Program-made: the position numbers and the translations under genes | Assembly (NCBI GenBank): GCA_030705825.1 | Contig: JAUZPR010000006.1 | Location: 1-58,517 of the forward strand | From: Bacillota bacterium | Lineage (GTDB): Bacteria; Bacillota; Clostridia; Acetivibrionales; JANLFN01 | Length of the DNA stretch: 58,517 bases | Direction of reading: 5' to 3' | In this document: positions 47,804-58,154 of the stretch, piece by piece | Numbering within the stretch: position 1 is the stretch's first letter | Layout: every line of letters begins with the position of its first letter | Notes under the pieces: model-generated | What the model was told of the DNA's origin: nothing | Seen by the model: the letters and a program-made list of their open reading frames with translations, nothing else | The model's database searches: none

Positions 47804-49726
47804 TTATTCAATATCCTCCAGCCATAAAGCGGCTTCCGCATCACTCGGCATACGCCAGTCACCTCTTGGTGACAGACTCACCGATCCTACTTTTGGACCA
47901 TCGGGTATGCAAGATCTTTTGAATTGCTGGCTGAAGAACCTTTTATAAAACACGTTCAGCCATTTTTTAATTTCAGCCTTATCATAATTCCCTTCAAATG
48001 CTTTCATTGCAAGGAATAAAATCTTTCCTGGTTCATAACAGTTTCTTACTGCGTTGTAAAGGAAGAAATCATGCAATTCATAGGGCCCTATTATATCTTC
48101 CGTCTTCTGGTTTATGTCTCCATTGGAATCAGGCGGCAGCAGTTCGGGGCTTATTGGTGTGTTCAGAATTTTGTACAATACTTTTTTGGTTTCCTCATCA
48201 ACCATGTTATCGGCTGCCCACTGAACCAGGTACTTGACAAGTGTCTTTGGAACACTGCAGTTGACTGCATACATGGACATGTGGTCCCCATTATAGGTAC
48301 ACCAGCCCATTGCGAGTTCCGACAAGTCTCCTGTTCCTATAACCAGACCGCCCATTTTGTTTGCCAGATCCATAAGTATTTGTGTTCGCTCTCTGGCCTG
48401 AACATTTTCATATGTGACATCATGAATCCTGGGATCATGGCCGATATCCTTAAAATGCTGCATACATGCATCCTTTATGTTTATTTCGCGTAAAGATGCA
48501 CCTGTGGTTTTTATAAGGGTCACCGCATTTTTATATGTCTCATCTGTAGTTCCGAAACCAGGCATTGTTACAGCTATAATATTCTCCCTGGGCAGTCCGA
48601 GCCGATCAAAAGCTTTGGCTGTTACAAGCAGTGCCAGCGTAGAATCCAATCCTCCGGATATTCCTATAACTGCATATTTGGAATGTGTATGATTAAACCT
48701 TTTACCAAGACCTGAGGTTTGTATGGCAAAGATTTCACTGCACCTCTTATCCCTTGAATCAGGATTTGAAGGTACAAACGGATGCGCATCAACATTCCTG
48801 TAAAAATCAGAAACAACCAATTCCTTGATTCTAAATTTTATTTTTCTAAAGGCAGTACCCTTTTCGGGCTCCATAAAGCTGGTATTTTTAATCCGGTCGC
48901 TTATCAGTCTTTCTATATCAATATCGCCAATTATCAGTTGGTCATCGTTTCTGAACCTTTCGGATTCCTCAAGTATATTGCCATATTCCGAAATAATAGC
49001 ATGTCCCCCGAAAACAATATCAGTCGTAGATTCATTTATACCTGAAGAGGTATAAATGTATCCTGCGAAGCATTTTGCAGACTGCTGCCTTACAAGCTCT
49101 CTCCTGTATTCATATTTGCCTATTATTTCGTTGCTGGCCGAGAGGTTGAACAAAAGAACCGCTCCCGAGAGAGCCTGCCGAGAACTTGGCGGAATAGGCA
49201 CCCAAAGGTCTTCACATATTTCAATTCCGAAACAAATCCTGTCATCCTTCTCATCCTGGAATACCAAATCCACTCCGAATGGAACATTTTTTCCGCAGAT
49301 GTTTACCGAATCATCCTTGTTATCCAAACCTGAAGCAAACCAGCGTTGTTCGTAAAACTCACCGTAACCTGGTATATATGTTTTAGGGACCACTCCCAAT
49401 ATGTTTCCTGACTGCAGCACAACAGCGCAATTATAAAGCTGACCGGCACTATAAACCGGCAAACCTGCTATTACAACAGTATCACAACTTTGAGTAGCTT
49501 CCATGATATCCTGGAGATGCGTTTCTGCACCTTTTAACAATATTTGCTGTTGGAACAGGTCCGCGCATGTATATGAAGTAATGCATAATTCCGGAAAGAT
49601 AATAAATTGTGCTCCCTTTTCAGCCGCCTGTTTTATTAGCTTTTTAATGGCATCAGCATTATAGCTTAAATCTCCTACCTTTAATGAAGGTACTGCTGCG
49701 GCAGCTCTAACGAAACCGTAACTCAT
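47804..49726 (-). CDS. nadE: Glutamine-dependent NAD+ synthetase
   Basis: Nitrilase-fold glutaminase (FPEL, PKTY, EICEDLW) plus synthetase domain (GISGGLDS, ENVQARER, SQQFKR). Confidence 0.95.
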   Translation of the reverse strand: MSYGFVRAAAAVPSLKVGDLSYNADAIKKLIKQAAEKGAQFIIFPELCITSYTCADLFQQQILLKGAETHLQDIMEATQSCDTVVIAGLPVYSAGQLYNCAVVLQSGNILGVVPKTYIPGYGEFYEQRWFASGLDNKDDSVNICGKNVPFGVDLVFQDEKDDRICFGIEICEDLWVPIPPSSRQALSGAVLLFNLSASNEIIGKYEYRRELVRQQSAKCFAGYIYTSSGINESTTDIVFGGHAIISEYGNILEESERFRNDDQLIIGDIDIERLISDRIKNTSFMEPEKGTAFRKIKFRIKELVVSDFYRNVDAHPFVPSNPDSRDKRCSEIFAIQTSGLGKRFNHTHSKYAVIGISGGLDSTLALLVTAKAFDRLGLPRENIIAVTMPGFGTTDETYKNAVTLIKTTGASLREINIKDACMQHFKDIGHDPRIHDVTYENVQARERTQILMDLANKMGGLVIGTGDLSELAMGWCTYNGDHMSMYAVNCSVPKTLVKYLVQWAADNMVDEETKKVLYKILNTPISPELLPPDSNGDINQKTEDIIGPYELHDFFLYNAVRNCYEPGKILFLAMKAFEGNYDKAEIKKWLNVFYKRFFSQQFKRSCIPDGPKVGSVSLSPRGDWRMPSDAEAALWLEDIE

Positions 49727-49817
49727 ATGATCACCTTTAATATCTTCAATTAAATAAGTTAATAATAATAAGTCTACCATATTTAAATACTTTTGTGTGT
49801 ATACTCACATAAAAAAA

Positions 49818-49915
49818 CCACCCAAAAACCGTCAGGAGTCGAAGTTGACGGTAGGAACCAAAGCCTTTTGTATTTTCTTCATCGAAATGTGATTGCTTAT
49901 GGTTCTTTTGGGTGG
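49818..49915. ncRNA. Candidate structured RNA element, copy A
   Basis: Closing stem ccacccaaaa/ttttgggtgg enclosing two hairpins; paralogous to 54413-54509. Confidence 0.55.
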
Positions 49916-49953
49916 AAAAATATTATCATAAATTATTAATTTATATCAACAAT

Positions 49954-52047
49954 TCACACATTAAAAAGCATATCCTCATAAGTCGGTAATGGCCAAAGCT
50001 CCGCATCAACAAGAGTTTCAAGCTTGTCACCATTTGCACGCAGGGATGACATTCCTGTAAATATCTCATCTCTGTAATAGCAGGCAATATCATACATGTC
50101 TTCGTTCTTTTCAGAAACTTTAGCCAGAGCAAGTTCCAATATCTTAATTTTGTTTTCAAAGGTAGCGGCTGTTGAAAGCACTTCAGACAAAAGCCCTGCA
50201 GGGGCTGATATATTTGCATTAACACCTGTTGATTTAATATTATTGATTGATGCTGCCAATTCGGATGCAAATTTTATTGCAGCCGGTAATATCTGACGCT
50301 TTGCTATCTCAATCATTGTAAGTGCTTCAATATTGATAGTCTTGATATAGGTTTCCAGCATAATTTCACATCTGGATTCCATTTCAGCTTTGCTGAGGAC
50401 ACCATGCTTCTCCATAATACTTGTGTTCTTTTCATCAATAAGAGCTCTTGTAGCCGCTACGGTCGATTTTATGTTGGGAAGGCCTCTTTTTTCAGCTTCC
50501 TTTACCCATTCGTCGGCATAGCCGTTACCGTTGAAAATAACCCGTTTATGCTCTTTTATGATTCCAAAAATAATTTTGTCTGTTTCAGTTCCACAGCTGC
50601 CCGAACTCTCCAGCTTGTCGGCTATTTGGCTTAAAACCTCGGCAACAATAGTATTTAATGTGAAATTGGCTGCAGCGATGGAAGCAGAGGATCCAACCAT
50701 TCTGAACTCAAATTTGTTGCCGGTAAAAGCAAACGGTGATGTTCTGTTTCTATCTGTATTGTCTTTTAACAGGTTAGGCAGAGTTGATACTCCCAGATCC
50801 ATTGTTCCACCCTGTTTTGAACTTCTTGCTCCGCCATTTTCAATCTGTTGAAGTATATCTGTCAATTGCTCTCCAAGGAATATTGAAATTATAGCCGGAG
50901 GTGCTTCATTAGCACCCAGCCTGTGGTCATTACCCGGATTTGCGGCAGACACTCTTAACAGGTCGGCAAACTGGTCAACTGCTTTGATAACTGCACAGAG
51001 AAATACGAGGAATTGCTTGTTTTCATGGGGTGTCGATCCGGGATCAAGCAGGTTAAGGCCGTCATTGGTACTCATTGACCAGTTGTTATGCTTACCTGAC
51101 CCATTAACACCGGCAAAAGGCTTTTCATGAAGTAAGCACACAAGGCCGTGCCTTAAAGCTACCTTCTGCATAAGTTCCATAGTCAGCTGGTTATGGTCGG
51201 TAGCCATATTTGTTGTAGAAAAGATAGGGGCAAGTTCATGCTGAGCCGGTGATACTTCGTTATGCTGGGTTTTTGCAAGTATTCCCAGTTTCCAGAGTTC
51301 TTCATTCAGCTCCTTCATAAAACCGGATATTCTTTCTTTTATCTGGCCGAAATAGTGGTCCTCCAATTCCTGTCCCTTGGCCGGTTTAGCACCGAATAGT
51401 GTTCTTCCGGTAAGTATCAGGTCTTTTCTTTTATCGTACAATTTCTTATCTATAAGGAAATATTCCTGTTCGGGTCCAACTGTTGTTGTAACCTTTACAG
51501 ATGTTGTATTGCCGAATAATTTCAAGATGCGGAGGGCCTGCTTTGAAAGAGCGTCCATAGAACGCAGCAAAGGAGTCTTCTTGTCGAGAGTTTCTCCGGT
51601 GTATGAAACAAATGCTGTAGGAATGCATAAGGTTCCATCCTTGATAAATGAAGGAGAAGTACAATCCCATGCGGTATAACCTCTTGCTGCATTTGTGGCT
51701 CTTATACCTCCTGAGGGAAAAGATGACGCGTCGGGTTCACCCTTAATCAGTTCCTTGCCTGAAAATTCCAGAATAACTTTACCGTTAGAAGTCGGATTTA
51801 TAAAGGAATCATGCTTTTCGGCGGTAATACCTGTCAATGGCTGAAACCAATGTGTAAAGTGCGTTGCCCCTTTTTCAACTGCCCAATCCTTCATTGCACT
51901 TGCAACAACATCTGCTACTGCAGGGTCTAAAGGAAGACCTTCGTCTATTGTCTTTTTCAAGGCTTTATAAGTTACTTTGGGAAGCCGTTCCATCATTACC
52001 GCATCGTTAAAAACATACGAACCAAATATTTCACTTAAATTTGACAT
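49954..52047 (-). CDS. glnA: Glutamine synthetase type III
   Basis: [53 protein letters not shown] and WPLPTY. Confidence 0.95.
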
Positions 52048-52083
52048 TTTATTATCCCCTTTCAATTGATTTAAAGTTAAATC

Positions 52084-52159
52084 AAAAAGCCTCCGGAAAA
52101 TCCCATAAGGATGATCCGAAGGCTGCAGTGCCGGTTTGATTTACTACCTCGTGGTAGTA
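52084..52159 (-). promoter_or_regulatory. ANTAR-type dual-hairpin attenuator before glnA
   Basis: tactac-CACGAG-gtagta, then ggc-ACTGCA-gcc overlapping the 5' arm of a terminator with a U-run. Confidence 0.7.
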
Positions 52160-52189
52160 TTAAATTTGATATATTTAAGTACTGTTTTA

Positions 52190-52528
52190 CTAAATAGCCT
52201 TATCGCCTTTTTCACCAGTTCTGATACGTACTGCATCATTAACACCATATACAAATATTTTCCCGTCTCCAACTTCACCGGTATGGGATATGTCACATAT
52301 AATTTTAATTACATCTTCAACATTGCTTTCACTTGTGACAATTTCAACCTTTATTTTTGGAAGAAGGTTCAAATTGACCTCCGTACCCCTGTAATATTCT
52401 TTTCTGCCCTTTTGCAGGCCGCATCCCATAACCTGGCTTATTGTTATTCCGCGTATATTTGCTTTATTCAATGCATCCTTAACGTCCTCAAGCTTACCTG
52501 GTCTTATTATTGCTTCTATTTTTTTCAT
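52190..52528 (-). CDS. glnK: P-II nitrogen regulator
   Basis: MKKIEAIIRP, QKG...YRG, TGEVGDGKIFV and RIRTGE; follows amt. Confidence 0.92.
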   Translation of the reverse strand: MKKIEAIIRPGKLEDVKDALNKANIRGITISQVMGCGLQKGRKEYYRGTEVNLNLLPKIKVEIVTSESNVEDVIKIICDISHTGEVGDGKIFVYGVNDAVRIRTGEKGDKAI

Positions 52529-52562
52529 AGCGGTTTCACACCTCTCTTATTAATATTTTTAA

Positions 52563-53906
52563 TTAAAGAGAAATACTTTCCTGACCGGAAAAATCAGGGT
52601 ATGCATCTTCACCGTGCTGTGATATGTCAAGTCCCTCTTCTTCTTCTTTTTCACTTACACGAAGTTTAGTAAACAGGGATATTACTTTCAGAATAACGAA
52701 TGTTCCCACAACAGCCAAAGCTATTGTTACACCAACTGCCAGCAGCTGAATCAATACTTGAGTAAATCCGCCTCCAAGGAATAAGCCTTTATGCTGTGCA
52801 TAAGAGTTTATAGCCGGGTCTGCAAAGAGGCCTGTTGCTATAGCTCCCCATATACCGCCTATACCGTGGCATCCGAATGCATCAAGTGCATCGTCGTAAC
52901 CAAGTTTTGCCTTGACTACACTGACTCCGAAATAACACAGCGGGCTGACCAGTAAACCAATGATTATTGAAGGCATGATTCCTACAAAGCCTGCGGCAGG
53001 AGTAATTGCAACAAGTCCTACGACTGCACCGGTTGCGGCACCTAGTAAAGTCGGTTTTCCATGGTGAACCCATTCTATGATTACCCACGAGAGTAAAGCT
53101 GCGGCAGCCGCTGTATTAGTAGTTGCAAATGCACTCATTGCAAGACCGTTCATTGCAAGGGCACTTCCTCCGTTAAATCCGAACCAGCCGAACCACAGAA
53201 GTGATGCACCTATAAGTACAAACGGGATATTATGCGGTGTCATTGCTACTTTGCCATGGCCTCTACGTTTACCTATCATAATTGCTGCGACCAGGCCGGA
53301 TACACCGGAACTGATATGGACAACAGTACCACCTGCGAAGTCAAGTGCTCCAAGCTTTGCCAACCAACCACCCGAACCCCAGACCCAATGTGCCAGAGGA
53401 TCATAAATGAAGGTTGACCACAACAGTATGAATACAAGAAATACGGGGAATTTAATTCTTTCAGCAAATGCACCGGTTATAAGTGCAGGTGTGATAATAG
53501 CAAACATCATCTGGAAAAAGGCAAACAATACATGTGGTATTGTAGTTGCGTAGGAAGAAGGATCTCCGGCTACTCCGCTGAAACCAAGAAAACTGAGATT
53601 TCCTAAAAGTCCATGTCCGGTATCGGGACCAAATGCCAATGTATATCCGATTATTACCCATTGAATTGATACAAGACCCATTATTACAAATGAGTGCATC
53701 ATAGTACCCAAAACATTCTTCTTTCTTACCATACCACCATAAAAAAGTGCCAAACCAGGTGTCATAATAAAAACAAGTACGGTTGAAATAAACATGAATG
53801 CAGAGTCGCCTGTATCAATCTTGGTTGCGCCATCTGCAAATGCTGTTACCGGCAGCATCAAAAGCACAAATAGGATAGACAGTAAAACAGGTAATTTCTT
53901 TTTCAT
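52563..53906 (-). CDS. amtB: Ammonium transporter
   Basis: MTPGLALFYGG, DFAGGTVVH, WFGWFGFNGGS and DDALDAFGCHG. Confidence 0.95.
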   Translation of the reverse strand: MKKKLPVLLSILFVLLMLPVTAFADGATKIDTGDSAFMFISTVLVFIMTPGLALFYGGMVRKKNVLGTMMHSFVIMGLVSIQWVIIGYTLAFGPDTGHGLLGNLSFLGFSGVAGDPSSYATTIPHVLFAFFQMMFAIITPALITGAFAERIKFPVFLVFILLWSTFIYDPLAHWVWGSGGWLAKLGALDFAGGTVVHISSGVSGLVAAIMIGKRRGHGKVAMTPHNIPFVLIGASLLWFGWFGFNGGSALAMNGLAMSAFATTNTAAAAALLSWVIIEWVHHGKPTLLGAATGAVVGLVAITPAAGFVGIMPSIIIGLLVSPLCYFGVSVVKAKLGYDDALDAFGCHGIGGIWGAIATGLFADPAINSYAQHKGLFLGGGFTQVLIQLLAVGVTIALAVVGTFVILKVISLFTKLRVSEKEEEEGLDISQHGEDAYPDFSGQESISL

Positions 53907-54035
53907 AAAACACGACCTCCTAAAAATAAAAATTTTAAATTTAACCCTTAAGCTATGCGCAAATTTGGTTCTTTCTGTTTCTAATGTTTTTTTAAGCTCT
54001 GAACCCCCTTTATGAAATTTTTAACCTAAAAAAAC

Positions 54036-54120
54036 AAAAAACGCCCAAACCTATATTTGTTCAAAAATATAGATTCCGGCGTCTAAGCCATAATAACAAA
54101 ATTCATCCAGGAATTTGTCA
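54036..54120 (-). promoter_or_regulatory. ANTAR-type dual-hairpin attenuator before amtB
   Basis: aaattc-CTGGAT-gaattt, then ggc-TTAGAC-gcc overlapping a terminator stem with a U-run. Confidence 0.72.
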
Positions 54121-54145
54121 TTAATTATTTATTAATTTTGATATA

Positions 54146-54174
54146 ATCATACCATCTATCCTGCAAAAACGCAA
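54146..54174 (-). promoter_or_regulatory. sigmaA promoter of amtB-glnK-glnA
   Basis: TTGCGT-17 nt-TATGAT just upstream of the attenuator. Confidence 0.6.
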
Positions 54175-54412
54175 TAGATTAATTCAAATTTTTTAAGAAA
54201 TCAAATAACTATTTTATTATCAATCTTTGTATCTTCTTTTGTTTCCCCTATTCAGCCCCTATTTTCCAACGTCTAAGCAATCGAAAGTAATCATGGCCTC
54301 AGCAGCCAGTCTCATCCTAAATATATTGCAAATATAAAATTTGCAATATCGATTATCGATTTATTCATTTTAATCAAATCATGCCAGTTTTAGATTTGCA
54401 TGAACAAAAAAA

Positions 54413-54509
54413 GCCACCCAAAAACCGTCAGGAGATCGTAAAAGGCGGTAATTGTCTGAGCAGCATTAACTTTCTTCCTCGAAGCTATGTTGTTCAGTTT
54501 TTGGGTGGC
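54413..54509. ncRNA. Candidate structured RNA element, copy B
   Basis: Closing stem gccacccaaaaa/tttttgggtggc enclosing two hairpins; 21 nt identical to copy A. Confidence 0.55.
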
Positions 54510-54559
54510 AAAAATTGTTTAATATATTGTTTAAATTTTTTATCTAAAACTTATTGTAT

Positions 54560-55582
54560 TCAAATTAAAAAGATTATTCCAAAGTAAACCGACATAATGC
54601 CAAGTCCAAGCGGCACACCCAGTCGGGCCCATTCTTTGCTTTTGATTCTTAGCTTTCCCGCCGATATTATATTGGGTATATTGCCGGGTATCAGCATACC
54701 TCCGCTTACAAGCAGTCCCATCAATACAGCCTGAATTTGCAGTGAAGACATTTTGTTGCTAACTTCAGCAGCTGTAAGAGTCGCATTATCCAATATAGCC
54801 GAAATCATATTTATCCAATATAGCAACCAACTTTTAAGCTGAATTACGTACATATCCACCAAAGGTTTAAAACCGGTTCCTAAAAGCTCTAATGCCAGAA
54901 CGAAAAGAAATATCTTACCGGTTCTGATAAAGCTGTCTTTATATGTTTCCTCTTCTTCAATTTCATCCGGTAGATCTGTATTTATACTACCGTTTCTTAT
55001 ATAGAAGAAACCCACAAGTCCTAATATTATAATTCCAGGTATTATATAAATACCTACTTCTCTTATCAAATACATAAAATCAGTATTCATTTTGGTTACT
55101 ACTACTGTCGAAAGCGGTTCGCCTACCGGTGTAAGTACTGCTCCCAAACCAATAGCAAAGCAGGCGATTATATCAATGTGTATCCTTTCTCCCCTGTTAA
55201 CAGGCAGCAAATTAATTATTTCAACAAGTATAAGTGCTGCAATTATTGCAGTAATAACACTCGATGCCAATCCGAGAACAATTATCAAAAGCATTACAAA
55301 AATTTTTAAAGGCATTAAAACAAGAATTTTATTTATAAAACTCCGGATAACATTTTTTAAAAGTCTAAAAAGAATACTTGAAACAAAAACAGCTATAGTT
55401 ATAAAATATAAAAATCTATTTTGAAGTATTTCTTCAAATAGTTTGGATGAAAATGTTCCCGAAATAATAACAGCCGATATTCCCATTATGAAAAGAAAAA
55501 CTTCCAGATTCTGTTCGACTATCTTCAATGAAAAGGGTAAAATCAAAACTATTGCCAGAACTATCAATAATCCTGCTGTCAA
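54560..55582 (-). CDS. DUF1646 family membrane protein (putative ion transporter)
   Basis: VEQNLEVFLF, GAVLTPVGEPLST, SAILDNATL and GGMLIPGNIPNII. Confidence 0.85.
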   Translation of the reverse strand: MTAGLLIVLAIVLILPFSLKIVEQNLEVFLFIMGISAVIISGTFSSKLFEEILQNRFLYFITIAVFVSSILFRLLKNVIRSFINKILVLMPLKIFVMLLIIVLGLASSVITAIIAALILVEIINLLPVNRGERIHIDIIACFAIGLGAVLTPVGEPLSTVVVTKMNTDFMYLIREVGIYIIPGIIILGLVGFFYIRNGSINTDLPDEIEEEETYKDSFIRTGKIFLFVLALELLGTGFKPLVDMYVIQLKSWLLYWINMISAILDNATLTAAEVSNKMSSLQIQAVLMGLLVSGGMLIPGNIPNIISAGKLRIKSKEWARLGVPLGLGIMSVYFGIIFLI

Positions 55583-55627
55583 TTCACTGCGCCTCCCTTC
55601 TGCCCGGTCTTCGATCCTCCATTATAG

Positions 55628-55679
55628 AAAACCGGTTGAAGCCTGAACTTTTGTGGGGCTGGTTCAGGCCCCGAACCGG
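55628..55679 (-). terminator. Terminator-like hairpin after the upstream amt gene
   Basis: ccggtt..gcctgaac/gttcaggc..aaccgg followed by TTTT on minus. Confidence 0.6.
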
Positions 55680-55727
55680 CATTCTTACTTGTTTAGCTTA
55701 AAATTACAGACCTGCAGCATCCGGATT

Positions 55728-57347
55728 TTAAGCTTTGAACATATTGTTTTTACCCTTTTGCAGCGCCTTTACCTGTTTGGGTATAACTGAATCCGACATG
55801 CTTATCTCCTGTTTTGTCAAAACGTAATCAGGATAAGCAAGTATACCCATTTCCGGAATGTCAAGACCACCGATTTCAGCTTCAGGTGCTACTCTGATAC
55901 CCATTATCTTGTCAAGCACCTTGTAGAATACGAAGGATGCGCCAAAGCCCCATACAATCAATACTGCGACATCTATAAGCTGTGCACCCAGCTGTCCGAA
56001 GCCTCCTCCATAGAACAAGCCCTTAACACCACCTGCAATTCCGTTAAATCCGTCGCCATATGAACCGTCTGCAAACAGTCCTAATGCTATCAAGCCCCAG
56101 GCACCATTTACAAAGTGAACCGATACAGCACCAACCGGGTCATCAATTCTGAGTTTATGTTCAATGAAGTATACCGAGAGGCATACAAGTACTCCCGCAA
56201 TTGCGCCAATCAGTACTGCCATAATACTATTAACAAATGCACACGGAGCAGTTATTGCAACCAAGCCTGCCAGAGCACCATTACACATCATAGATGGATC
56301 AGGTTTACCGAACTTAATCCACATATAAAACATTGCGACCAGTCCGCCTATTGCACCTGCCAGCATTGTATTTGTAGCAACTACAGCCAGCCTGAAATCC
56401 TGTCCGTTAAGAGTACTGCCTGCATTAAATGCAAACCACCCGAAGAACAGTATGATGGTACCCAGTATAGCCATTGGAATGTCATGTCCGGGGAATGCTA
56501 CTACTGTTCCGTCTTTTTTATACTTGCCTATTCTGGGCCCGATAATAATGGCCGATGCGAGAGCCATAATACCACCCATCGCATGAACGACACCTGAACC
56601 TGCAAAGTCAAGAGCTCCATGACCAAGGCCAAAATTCTTACCAAGGGTTGAAAGCCAGCCGCCACCCCATACCCAGTTGCCGTATAGCGGATAATATATC
56701 ATCGATACGAAGAATGAACCCATGACTATTGCCGAGAATTTAACTCTCTCTGCCATAGCTCCTGTTGGAATGGTTACAGTTGTATCCATAAACACCATCT
56801 GGAACATGAACATTGCAAATATTCCTACATCATAGGTTCCTCCGGAAGTAAGGAAGAATCCCTTATAACCGAATAGTCCCCCAAAGCCCTTTATAGCAAC
56901 TTCGCCGTTAAGAGTAGCAGTGCCCGAGCCCAATAGGGACGTACCCCCGCTGCCTCCGAATTGTAACGCAAACCCCATTATCCAATAACCTATAGCTCCT
57001 ACAAGAAATACCATCAGGTTCATAGCCATGGTATGCATTGCGTTTTTTGCCTGTGTGAATCCTGTTTCCACCAGTGCGAATCCTGCCTGGAAAAAGAATA
57101 TCAAGCAGCCGGTAAGAATAACCCAAACAAAATTTATACCTATTTTATTTTTTCCTACCTGATTGCCTATCTCCTGCATGGTAGGCTGGCCCGGAGTTTG
57201 TGCCGCCACATCACTTATCGAGCCTATGTTTGCACCCGAAGGATCACCTGCAGGCTGGCTATTATCGGCAAAAACTGCTGTTGCCAGGCCACCAAAAACA
57301 ATCAAAACTACAATTAATAAAACCAAAGTTCTGGTAAAAATTTTCAT
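55728..57347 (-). CDS. amt: Ammonium transporter (second, divergent paralogue)
   Basis: QAGFALVETG, DFAGSGVVH, FGWFAFNAGS and IDDPVGAVSVH. Confidence 0.93.
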   Translation of the reverse strand: MKIFTRTLVLLIVVLIVFGGLATAVFADNSQPAGDPSGANIGSISDVAAQTPGQPTMQEIGNQVGKNKIGINFVWVILTGCLIFFFQAGFALVETGFTQAKNAMHTMAMNLMVFLVGAIGYWIMGFALQFGGSGGTSLLGSGTATLNGEVAIKGFGGLFGYKGFFLTSGGTYDVGIFAMFMFQMVFMDTTVTIPTGAMAERVKFSAIVMGSFFVSMIYYPLYGNWVWGGGWLSTLGKNFGLGHGALDFAGSGVVHAMGGIMALASAIIIGPRIGKYKKDGTVVAFPGHDIPMAILGTIILFFGWFAFNAGSTLNGQDFRLAVVATNTMLAGAIGGLVAMFYMWIKFGKPDPSMMCNGALAGLVAITAPCAFVNSIMAVLIGAIAGVLVCLSVYFIEHKLRIDDPVGAVSVHFVNGAWGLIALGLFADGSYGDGFNGIAGGVKGLFYGGGFGQLGAQLIDVAVLIVWGFGASFVFYKVLDKIMGIRVAPEAEIGGLDIPEMGILAYPDYVLTKQEISMSDSVIPKQVKALQKGKNNMFKA

Positions 57348-57374: not shown

Positions 57375-57653
57375 TCAAACATTCTTTTTCAGAAAACCTT
57401 TCATGGGCTTTGAGAAATTCTTCCACGAGAACTGTGAATCTGGATCAATCCGTTTCTTAAGTTTAAAAAGAGATTTCATATACCTGAAGCCTAAAAATAA
57501 AACTACCAGGCCGATTACATACGAAGGTATTCTCGATCCTACAAGTCCAAACGACGTCTGGTAAACAATTCCGAATATAGTGAACAATATTCCAAGAAGC
57601 ATTATCAAAGCTGCAGTTATAAACAAAACTTTATATGCCGACCTTTTATCCAT
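57375..57653 (-). CDS. Small two-TM hypothetical protein
   Basis: ATG immediately after the P-II stop; two hydrophobic helices; FSWKNF tail. Confidence 0.7.
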   Translation of the reverse strand: MDKRSAYKVLFITAALIMLLGILFTIFGIVYQTSFGLVGSRIPSYVIGLVVLFLGFRYMKSLFKLKKRIDPDSQFSWKNFSKPMKGFLKKNV

Positions 57654-57654
57654 A

Positions 57655-57993
57655 TCAAATCGCCTTCTCTCCACGTTCTCCGGTTCTTATCCTAACCGCG
57701 TCTTCAATCGGATAAACAAAAATCTTACCGTCCCCGATAGCTCCGGTCCTTACTTTATCAGCAATTCCATTTACCAATGGATCTACTTTGTCATCAGGAC
57801 AGACAATTTCAACCTTGACTTTAGGCAAAAGATTTATGTTAAGTTCGGTTCCTCTGTAGACCTCCTTTCTTCCTTTCTGCAAGCCGCATCCGGAAACCAT
57901 ACTGACCGTCATTCCGAAGCTTCCCAGCTTACCGGTTACTTCCTTAAGCTCCTCAAGCTTTTCAGGTCTGGTGATTACCTCGATTTTTTTCAT
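57655..57993 (-). CDS. glnK: P-II nitrogen regulator
   Basis: MKKIEVITRP, QKG...YRG and TGAIGDGKIFV; AGGAGG RBS before ATG 57993. Confidence 0.9.
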   Translation of the reverse strand: MKKIEVITRPEKLEELKEVTGKLGSFGMTVSMVSGCGLQKGRKEVYRGTELNINLLPKVKVEIVCPDDKVDPLVNGIADKVRTGAIGDGKIFVYPIEDAVRIRTGERGEKAI

Positions 57994-58019
57994 ACAAACG
58001 CCTCCTTTTCGATATAAAC

Positions 58020-58107
58020 AAAAAACGCCGGAACCTATATTATCCAAATATAGATTCTGGCGTCTAAGCCTTAAGATATGAAACTCTGCCAGGAGCTTTA
58101 TATCTTA
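58020..58107 (-). promoter_or_regulatory. ANTAR-type dual-hairpin attenuator before the P-II/amt operon
   Basis: Long stem with loop CTGGCA, then ggc-TTAGAC-gcc overlapping a terminator; paralogous to 54036-54120. Confidence 0.72.
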
Positions 58108-58125
58108 TTATTAAATTATGAATTT

Positions 58126-58154
58126 ATTATACTATCAAACTTGCAAATATTCAA
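58126..58154 (-). promoter_or_regulatory. sigmaA promoter
   Basis: TTGAAT-17 nt-TATAAT. Confidence 0.7.

Follow-up and report, generated by a model that had tools for sequence, protein, structure and literature searches.

Here, we analyse contig JAUZPR010000006.1 of an uncultured Bacillota bacterium of the class Clostridia, a stretch of 58,517 nt with 39.1% GC that is called the window throughout, and describe an element that occurs twice among its nitrogen genes and is referred to as E1 and E2. The similarity of the two copies goes far beyond chance and reflects homology, both are strongly structured, and they represent a genuine two-copy element without a matching Rfam family. The reading that we favour, and to which we give about an even chance of being right, takes E1 and E2 to be paralogous Y-shaped intrinsic terminators, or 3' untranslated region (3'UTR) modules, which close two paralogous operons that are both led by ANTAR-type leaders. 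The element had been pointed out in an earlier note made from the letters of the DNA, and all the sequence features named there, including the coordinates, a shared 21-mer, a closing helix, a short hairpin and a long hairpin with its apex, were present.

Anatomy of the element and its place at the ends of two operons

E1 proper occupies positions 49818-49915 and E2 proper positions 54413-54509. On the minus strand both copies end in seven uridines (U7), as the earlier note had said of their U-runs, and these correspond to plus-strand A-runs at 49811-49817 and 54406-54412, so that the whole elements including U7 span 49811..49915 and 54406..54509. The 21-mer CCACCCAAAAACCGTCAGGAG is exact at 49818 and 54414 and nowhere else in the window, and allowing up to three mismatches gave no further match (0.00 expected from 100 shuffles). 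Read on the minus strand, each element consists of the 5' arm of the closing helix, the long hairpin, the short hairpin, the 3' arm of the closing helix and U7, and the layout of both copies can be written as U5, CCACCCAAAA, long hairpin, short hairpin, U, UUUUGGGUGG, U7.

In E1, the closing-helix arm CCACCCAAAA (49818..49827) pairs with TTTTGGGTGG (49906-49915) over 10 nt with 100% complementarity and 78 nt between the arms, and in E2 the arm GCCACCCAAAAAC (54413..54425) pairs with 54497-54509 over 13 nt, also with 100% complementarity, and 71 nt between the arms. The short hairpin is made of ACCGTCA/TGACGGT in E1 (49828..49852), where the minus-strand loop carries the anti-Shine-Dalgarno-like CGACUCCUG, and of ACCGTC/GGCGGT in E2 (54424..54449), where the minus-strand loop carries ACGAUCUCCUGA; read from the plus strand, the E2 version is paired over 6 bp, one of them G·U, whereas the minus strand has just 4 Watson-Crick pairs. 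The long hairpin of E1 (49855..49905) has the arms GAACCA/TGGTTC together with inner pairs and the apex TTCTTCATCGAA at 49875-49886, while that of E2 (54456..54497) has the arms CTGAGCAGCAT/ATGTTGTTCAG, forming 11 bp, including two G·U pairs of the plus strand that turn into A·C on the other strand, and the apex TTCTTCCTCGAA at 54472-54483. The arms of this hairpin are unrelated between the copies, whereas the apex is conserved: TTCTTC(A/C)TCGAA is found exactly in the window at E1 and E2 only, and with one mismatch there are five matches in the window against 1.48 expected. The pairwise alignment of E1 and E2 consists of conserved blocks separated by unalignable stem arms, with the best conservation in a 28-nt block at the 3' end, CGA(U)CUCCUGACGGUUUUUGGGUGG and the U-run. 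The covariance model R1 scores E1 at 122 bits and E2 at 120.2 bits.

Every long open reading frame (ORF) from 47.8 to 58.5 kb is on the minus strand, and for this reason the elements must be transcribed as the 3'UTRs of glnA and of a DUF1646 gene. In the order of transcription, a partial ANTAR-domain ORF is followed by P-II, a 99-aa ORF, an ammonium transporter of 539 aa (amtB2), DUF1646 (54560..55582) and E2, and after a spacer of ~500 nt by amtB (start at 53906), glnK, glnA for the 697-aa type III glutamine synthetase (GSIII; 49954..52047), E1 and nadE for a glutamine-dependent NAD synthetase (47804..49729), for which the Shine-Dalgarno sequence AAAGGTGA suggests the start at 49729. DUF1646 and glnA are thus the last genes of the units that E2 and E1, respectively, would close. 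From the glnA stop codon (49954) it is 38 nt to the start of E1, and ~80 nt separate the end of E1 from the likely start of nadE; for E2, the distance from the DUF1646 stop codon (54560) is 50 nt, and amtB starts ~500 nt downstream of the element. The ORF map confirmed that the elements are located just 3' of these two genes and bracket amtB-glnK-glnA, as had been noted earlier.

At these distances from the stop codons, both copies show the arrangement of an intrinsic terminator on the minus strand, with the GC-rich pairing CCACCC/GGGUGG followed directly by U7, and a consensus scan called no conventional terminator after glnA or DUF1646. Further, a helix script that searched the window for helices of at least 9 bp, spanning 40-110 nt and followed by a T-run, returned GC-containing examples at E1 and E2 only and on the minus strand only, apart from an AT-only pair, an AT-rich pair and a pair within the tRNA cluster. 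On the plus strand, A-runs flank both sides of E1 and E2, and since there is no U-tract on either side the elements form no terminator in that direction. The coding paralogues of the two operons are, judged from their sequences, old (the AmtB pair shares 36% identity and the P-II pair 62%), and if the elements stem from the same duplication as the operons, their 21+10+12 identical bases would suggest constraint.

The mechanism that we propose is that of a minus-strand 3'-end module, a three-helix Rho-independent terminator in which a long-range helix with its GC-rich base directly before U7 would enclose the two hairpins. E2 would end the P-II/99-aa ORF/amtB2/DUF1646 operon and insulate it from the promoter and leader of amtB, and E1 would end the amtB-glnK-glnA operon and insulate it from nadE. 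RNA polymerase would be expected to stop at the U-tracts, and the branched interior may speed or stabilise closure of the helix and protect the 3' end. If E1 and E2 are only terminators, they are a tidy case of a branched three-helix terminator kept in two copies, which is of modest interest.

The searches for relatives returned no third member of the family. At gathering score, Rfam 15 found three tRNAs only in the whole window, with no glutamine, NAD+ or Na+ riboswitch and no known small RNA (sRNA), and at E-values of up to 10 the region 49600-54800 matched MIR2655 at 25.9 bits (threshold 122) and FTX_2 at 19.8 bits (threshold 48), neither of which is plausible, in agreement with the earlier note, which could name no known family. 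A tRNA and tmRNA search found nothing at E1 or E2, and R1 run over the window with filters off revealed no third copy, the next-best matches (at most 20.8 bits) being ordinary terminators. Scanning 185,579 species genomes for the pattern CCACCCAAAA-N60-90-TTTTGGGTGG gave 61 matches at 53 loci, mostly outside Clostridia; the only Clostridia loci, L034 (Oscillospiraceae) and L052 (Agathobacter), were considered as relatives and discarded as unrelated on inspection by eye. None of the 61 matches had both inner motifs and none had flanking T-runs, their best R1 score was 27.2 bits compared to 120-122 for E1 and E2, and by our estimate chance would give a number of this order (~17 for a uniform composition, to which repeat families add). 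Likewise, blastn of both copies against 72,556 plasmid and 50,697 phage records found none beyond chance matches of 21-41 nt (E-values of at least 0.1), and a literature search that included the literal 21-mer found no description of such an element. The lack of a homologue may simply arise because close relatives of the host are missing from the collections: the GSIII of this locus is unique in the protein collection, its nearest relative is 82% identical, and the named relatives Anaerobacterium and Pseudobacteroides are at ~76-78% identity. An uncultured host without a close sequenced relative is also the practical limit for work on the element.

Among the pattern matches, two Lewinellaceae metagenome-assembled genomes contain arrays of an 87-nt unit that has the same 10-nt inverted arms and recurs every ~290 nt or, in one case, at a multiple of this distance (loci L008, 1356-2909, and L043, 2001-2968, as well as L005, L033 and L049). 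These arrays are an unrelated repeat family that was caught by the pattern by accident.

Probable ANTAR control of the cluster and a possible small RNA

The cluster features a nitrogen-responsive mechanism that the earlier note had missed, namely an ANTAR regulator gene together with ANTAR-type leader attenuators. The partial ANTAR-domain gene is located at the contig edge (58220-58516, minus strand; Pfam E = 1.6e-21), and the motif GCUUAGACG(Y)(Y)GGAA occurs at three sites of the cluster, one before P-II (58055-58069) and two in the amtB leader (54264-54278 and 54074-54088). With up to two mismatches the motif has 4 matches in the window against 0.26 expected, and E1 and E2 are not among them. 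Leader terminators are found at ~58017-58064 before P-II and at ~54033-54083 before amtB, and clear homology links the P-II leader to the second amtB site, both having a hairpin with a hexaloop (CUGGCA or CUGGAU) followed by a strong terminator and a U-run; the 5' arm of the leader terminator can instead form GGC[UUAGAC]GCC. According to the accessible part of Ramesh et al. 2012 (PMC3369931), ANTAR substrates have tandem 3-bp stems with hexaloops (A1, G4), the second hairpin competing with a terminator, and the leader loops of the cluster have the G at position 4, but not the A at position 1. Taken together, the sequences point to what is probably a NitR/ANTAR antitermination regulon, and the nitrogen-responsive control of both operons is most simply attributed to the ANTAR system. 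E1 and E2 are not the nitrogen sensor of the cluster, and they are located at the opposite operon end from the ANTAR-type leaders.

With GlnZ of enterobacteria as a functional precedent, the most economical extension of the terminator reading is that E1 and E2 may also give rise to sRNAs with an anti-Shine-Dalgarno seed. Both copies have the 3'UTR location and the presumed terminator shared with an mRNA, E1 following glnA and E2 following DUF1646. The terminated 3'UTR fragment of ~100 nt would then persist as a small RNA, and its conserved single-stranded block CGA(U)CUCCUGA, which is anti-Shine-Dalgarno-like, could pair with ribosome-binding sites, with amtB as the best candidate. For the minus-strand loop UACGAUCUCCUGA of E2, 13 contiguous pairs (3 of them G·U) are predicted with the amtB ribosome-binding region (53911..53923, minus strand), and the predicted duplex of -19.3 kcal/mol ranks 1/36 among the start regions and is equalled by 0.4% of random windows; we treat this modelled pairing as a lead only. 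Duplexes of the whole elements with the 36 start regions were long-loop structures and uninformative. A leader peptide or small ORF was also considered and set aside: both copies have a short minus-strand ORF that ends at a conserved UGA, the peptides are unrelated, and the E1 ORF has no Shine-Dalgarno sequence.

In its broadest form, the idea would make E1 and E2 the founding members of an undescribed class of structured RNAs tied to nitrogen operons in an uncultured Clostridia lineage, either as twin Y-shaped terminator-sRNAs from two ANTAR-controlled operons with a loop that feeds back on ribosome-binding sites such as that of amtB, or as conditional terminators coupling P-II/amtB2, amtB-glnK-glnA and nadE into one regulated chain, and in either case as an RNA layer above ANTAR antitermination. 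We regard this as conceivable, though rather doubtful. Should the conserved loops matter, the element would show how the paralogous ammonium-transport and assimilation units are coordinated with glutamine-dependent NAD synthesis.

The strand question and rival explanations

Both copies fold better than their shuffled versions on either strand. Relative to 200 shuffles, E1 reached a fold z-score of -4.6 on both strands, and E2 reached -5.8 on the plus and -3.2 on the minus strand; in none of the four combinations of strand and copy did a shuffle fold as well. The fold energies were -35.9 (E1) and -38.0 kcal/mol (E2) on the plus strand and -33.8 (E1) and -28.7 kcal/mol (E2) on the minus strand. 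The core fold of E1 has 31 Watson-Crick pairs and works equally on either strand, and because it is entirely Watson-Crick it is uninformative about the strand; E1 accordingly keeps its three-helix fold on the minus strand. The plus strand of E2 takes the three-helix fold seen in E1 at the energy given above, with 4 G·U pairs. The three-helix element that the earlier note saw in both copies was therefore recovered as the minimum-energy fold of both on the plus strand, whereas on the minus strand this holds for E1 and not for E2. The closing helix itself forms on the minus strand with a pair probability of 0.69-1.0 when 0, 60 or 150 nt of upstream context are included, and no antiterminator alternative to it was visible with up to 150 nt of that context. 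The G·U pattern is real but thin evidence for a plus-strand RNA, consisting of four pairs in one copy, and we estimate that four wobbles would all fall on one strand of a neutrally decaying palindrome in ~1 in 8 cases, or in a few per cent if transversions are counted too. We put the minus strand ahead of the plus strand, since it is the one on which transcription is certain and on which a termination signal has been conserved. The earlier note was fair in leaving the strand open, and the present results have shifted the odds towards the minus strand without settling it.

Several observations weigh against the terminator reading and its sRNA extension. The branched interior of 71-78 nt does not fit the usual shape of a terminator, for which the scan sought a loop of 3-8 nt, and the scan called neither element. 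When E2 is read from the minus strand, its 4 G·U pairs turn into A·C, the same helices are worth -24.8 instead of -38.0 kcal/mol, and the minimum-energy fold of E2 keeps the closing helix only and has no three-way junction; the preference for the plus-strand fold persists at 55 and 65 °C. Instead of selection, gene conversion between the direct repeats, which are 4.6 kb apart, could account for the identical blocks, and the conserved apex and the CGA(U)CUCCUGA loop are not explained by termination alone, unless the sRNA idea is right. With respect to the latter, amtB ranks only 3/36 for the loop of E1, and the pairing with E2 is one find among many comparisons (8 loops x 36 targets). Finally, the scans found no homologue, and E1 and E2 of one contig are the only two sequences at hand. 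For the same reason, the 'signature of a functional RNA' claimed for the element by the earlier note is not established.

A first rival explanation is that the functional molecule is a non-coding RNA read from the plus strand, antisense to the 3'UTRs of glnA and DUF1646, with the three-way junction as its 5' domain and possibly serving as a cis-antisense regulator of both operons. The plus strand is the sole strand on which the two copies share their minimum-energy fold, this fold is the more stable one, also at the two higher temperatures, and all 4 non-Watson-Crick pairs of E2 are G·U there. Additionally, control of ammonia assimilation in Clostridium acetobutylicum uses, according to the part of PMC4676874 that was accessible, the nitR antiterminator and an antisense RNA, and an ANTAR gene is present here as well. 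However, no plus-strand promoter-like site of at least 9/12 adjoins the elements upstream, the nearest being located at 49737-49766 (~50 nt before E1) and 54193-54220 (~190 nt before E2), and the plus strand has neither a U-tract nor a terminator. It also has no meaningful complementarity to the 5' regions of the cluster mRNAs, the best contiguous runs being G·U-dominated, and its loops score at background. Given, further, that the core of E1 carries no strand information and that one-strand wobbles could arise by neutral decay at the rates estimated above, we consider such an RNA unlikely. The opposite possibility, that the elements are minus-strand cis-regulatory leaders acting as ligand- or protein-responsive conditional terminators with promoters of their own and gating read-through into nadE (E1) and towards amtB-glnK-glnA (E2), draws on promoter-like sites that lie immediately upstream on that strand. 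TTGATA-16-GATAAT (10/12; 49922..49949, minus strand) ends 6 nt before E1 and is the sole minus-strand site of at least 9/12 between glnA and nadE, and TTTAGA-16-TATATT (9/12; 54521..54548, minus strand) ends 11 nt before E2; moreover, the loops are conserved while the stems diverge, and both downstream units concern glutamine. Yet the promoter-like counts are not above those of shuffled sequences (3 against 2.5 +/- 1.4 in the E1 region and 6 against 3.4 +/- 2.0 in the E2 region), the two sites are not at homologous positions of the alignment, and E2 is located upstream of both the promoter-like site of amtB itself and its ANTAR-type leader of ~400 nt. E2 has no stable junction on the minus strand, no riboswitch family matches, and the closing helix is predicted to form with a probability near 1 without a competing antiterminator pairing. 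The riboswitch that the earlier note had leaned towards, with Gln, 2-oxoglutarate or NAD as the ligand, consequently finds no support, and conditional leaders as a whole appear quite unlikely to us.

A related proposal links the elements to the regulator of the cluster, whose ANTAR protein would bind and weaken mini-hairpins in E1 and E2 and so, as one regulator, couple three units. On the minus strand both copies do have a 3-bp stem with a hexaloop carrying G4 (UUC[GAUGAA]GAA and UUC[GAGGAA]GAA), the first hairpin of the amtB leader has the same stem (UUC[CUGGAU]GAA), and 7-9 nt downstream GCUUUGGU in E1 and GCUCAGAC in E2 resemble the leader motif GCUUAGAC. The second hairpin, however, is missing from E2 and amounts in E1 to no more than 2 bp and a mismatch, the loops differ from those of the cluster sites (CUGGNN, UUAGAC) and from the A1/G4 rule as given in the accessible part of PMC3369931, the motif search with up to two mismatches missed both elements, and the putative site lacks the overlap with the terminator arm on which the ANTAR mechanism depends; the proposal is, in our view, very improbable. 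The elements could also be repeats at the level of DNA, either as a small non-autonomous mobile element similar to miniature inverted-repeat transposable elements (MITEs) or repetitive extragenic palindromic (REP) sequences, or as remnants of the recombination that brought in amtB-glnK-glnA, with RNA structure as a by-product. Both copies have the same perfect inverted termini (10-13 bp) around an interior that differs, runs of one and the same base flank both sides in direct and not inverted order (T5 and T7 in the minus-strand sense), and the copies are direct repeats that exactly bracket one operon. Against this stand the presence in the 58.5 kb of just 2 copies, which share their orientation and each lie right after a stop codon, the absence of anything beyond chance in the plasmid and phage records and of any related element by the termini pattern in the species genomes, and the lack of a transposase or integrase gene among the ORFs scanned near the elements. 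We would also argue that conserved interior loops between unrelated paired arms are unlike the usual decaying copies of MITEs. Within the 58.5 kb of the window, the scattered copies by which the earlier note proposed to recognise a mobile repeat were not seen. We give a DNA-level origin a low probability.

Other sites near the elements were recorded in addition. A perfect palindrome, ATATTGCAAAT-N5-ATTTGCAATAT, at 54323-54349 overlaps the promoter-like site TCGATA-17-TATATT of amtB, and ATTTGCAA recurs at ~58126-58154 in the spacer of TTGAAT-17-TATAAT, a strong promoter-like site of P-II; judging by these positions, the palindrome and its recurrence may be an operator for a DNA-binding nitrogen regulator on top of ANTAR. 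Just upstream of the amtB promoter-like site there is also a tandem pair of palindromes, ATCGAT-N-ATCGAT (54348-54360). A further palindrome of 14-16 bp at 49791-49812 (TGTGAGTATACACACA on the minus strand) lies directly after the U-tract of E1, between E1 and nadE, and could be an operator for nadE. It was compared with the NiaR operator, for which the accessible part of the published description gives the core TGT-N4/5-ACA and states that NiaR does not regulate nadE, and this assignment was set aside.

With regard to the remaining genes, the 99-aa ORF between P-II and amtB2 (57375-57674, minus strand) has no significant Pfam family and only weak membrane-protein-like matches (E-values of at least 0.012). 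DUF1646 genes often carry the DUF1646-motif (Na+) riboswitch. The DUF1646 gene described here resides inside a nitrogen operon instead, and its upstream region (55582-55728) matched no RNA family at E-values of up to 5.

Comparison with known systems

An antisense RNA is reportedly encoded downstream of glnA in Clostridium acetobutylicum P262, in work by Fierro-Monti and co-workers from 1992. As far as the accessible accounts of that system and of nitR allow a comparison, E1 is similar in being located downstream of glnA, in having its better fold on the opposite strand and in sharing its cluster with a regulator of the ANTAR/NitR type. It differs in that the plus strand of E1 has no complementarity to the 5' region of glnA and no adjoining promoter-like site, and in that a second copy, E2, is located behind DUF1646.

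Structured interspersed repeats include MITE-, REP- and bcr-type elements. E1 and E2 resemble these in their perfect terminal inverted repeats of 10 and 13 bp, same-base flanks, intergenic location and potential RNA structure, but unlike them they are present in two copies in the window, both at gene ends of one cluster, and no counterpart of them was found in the plasmid, phage and species-genome collections.

With ANTAR substrates, as described in the accessible part of the literature, the elements share the neighbourhood, which comprises the ANTAR gene and three leader sites, and each has one 3-bp stem with a G4 hexaloop. They lack, however, the second hexaloop hairpin, the A1 and the overlap with a terminator arm, and they are located at 3' ends and not in leaders.

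Intrinsic terminators are matched by the GC-rich helix base directly followed by 7 U and by the position 38-50 nt past a stop codon, on the gene strand and at operon ends. The elements depart from them in that the helix closes a branched interior with two hairpins rather than a loop of a few nucleotides, and in that the two copies share conserved loop sequences and escaped the consensus scan.

GlnZ is a regulatory sRNA released from the glnA 3'UTR in Enterobacteriaceae, according to the accessible parts of PMC9731577 and bioRxiv 10.1101/2022.04.01.486790. On that description, E1 is similar in occupying the glnA 3'UTR including its presumed terminator, whereby a nitrogen-induced mRNA could deliver a regulatory RNA, and it is dissimilar in belonging to Clostridia with a type III glutamine synthetase and in having a second copy behind an unrelated gene; the likeness would be functional, and no sequence relationship is expected. 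Provided that the conserved loops are of importance, a regulatory RNA would come from the glnA 3'UTR of a Gram-positive anaerobe, and a GlnZ-like function would have arisen independently, in two copies, beside an ANTAR antitermination system.

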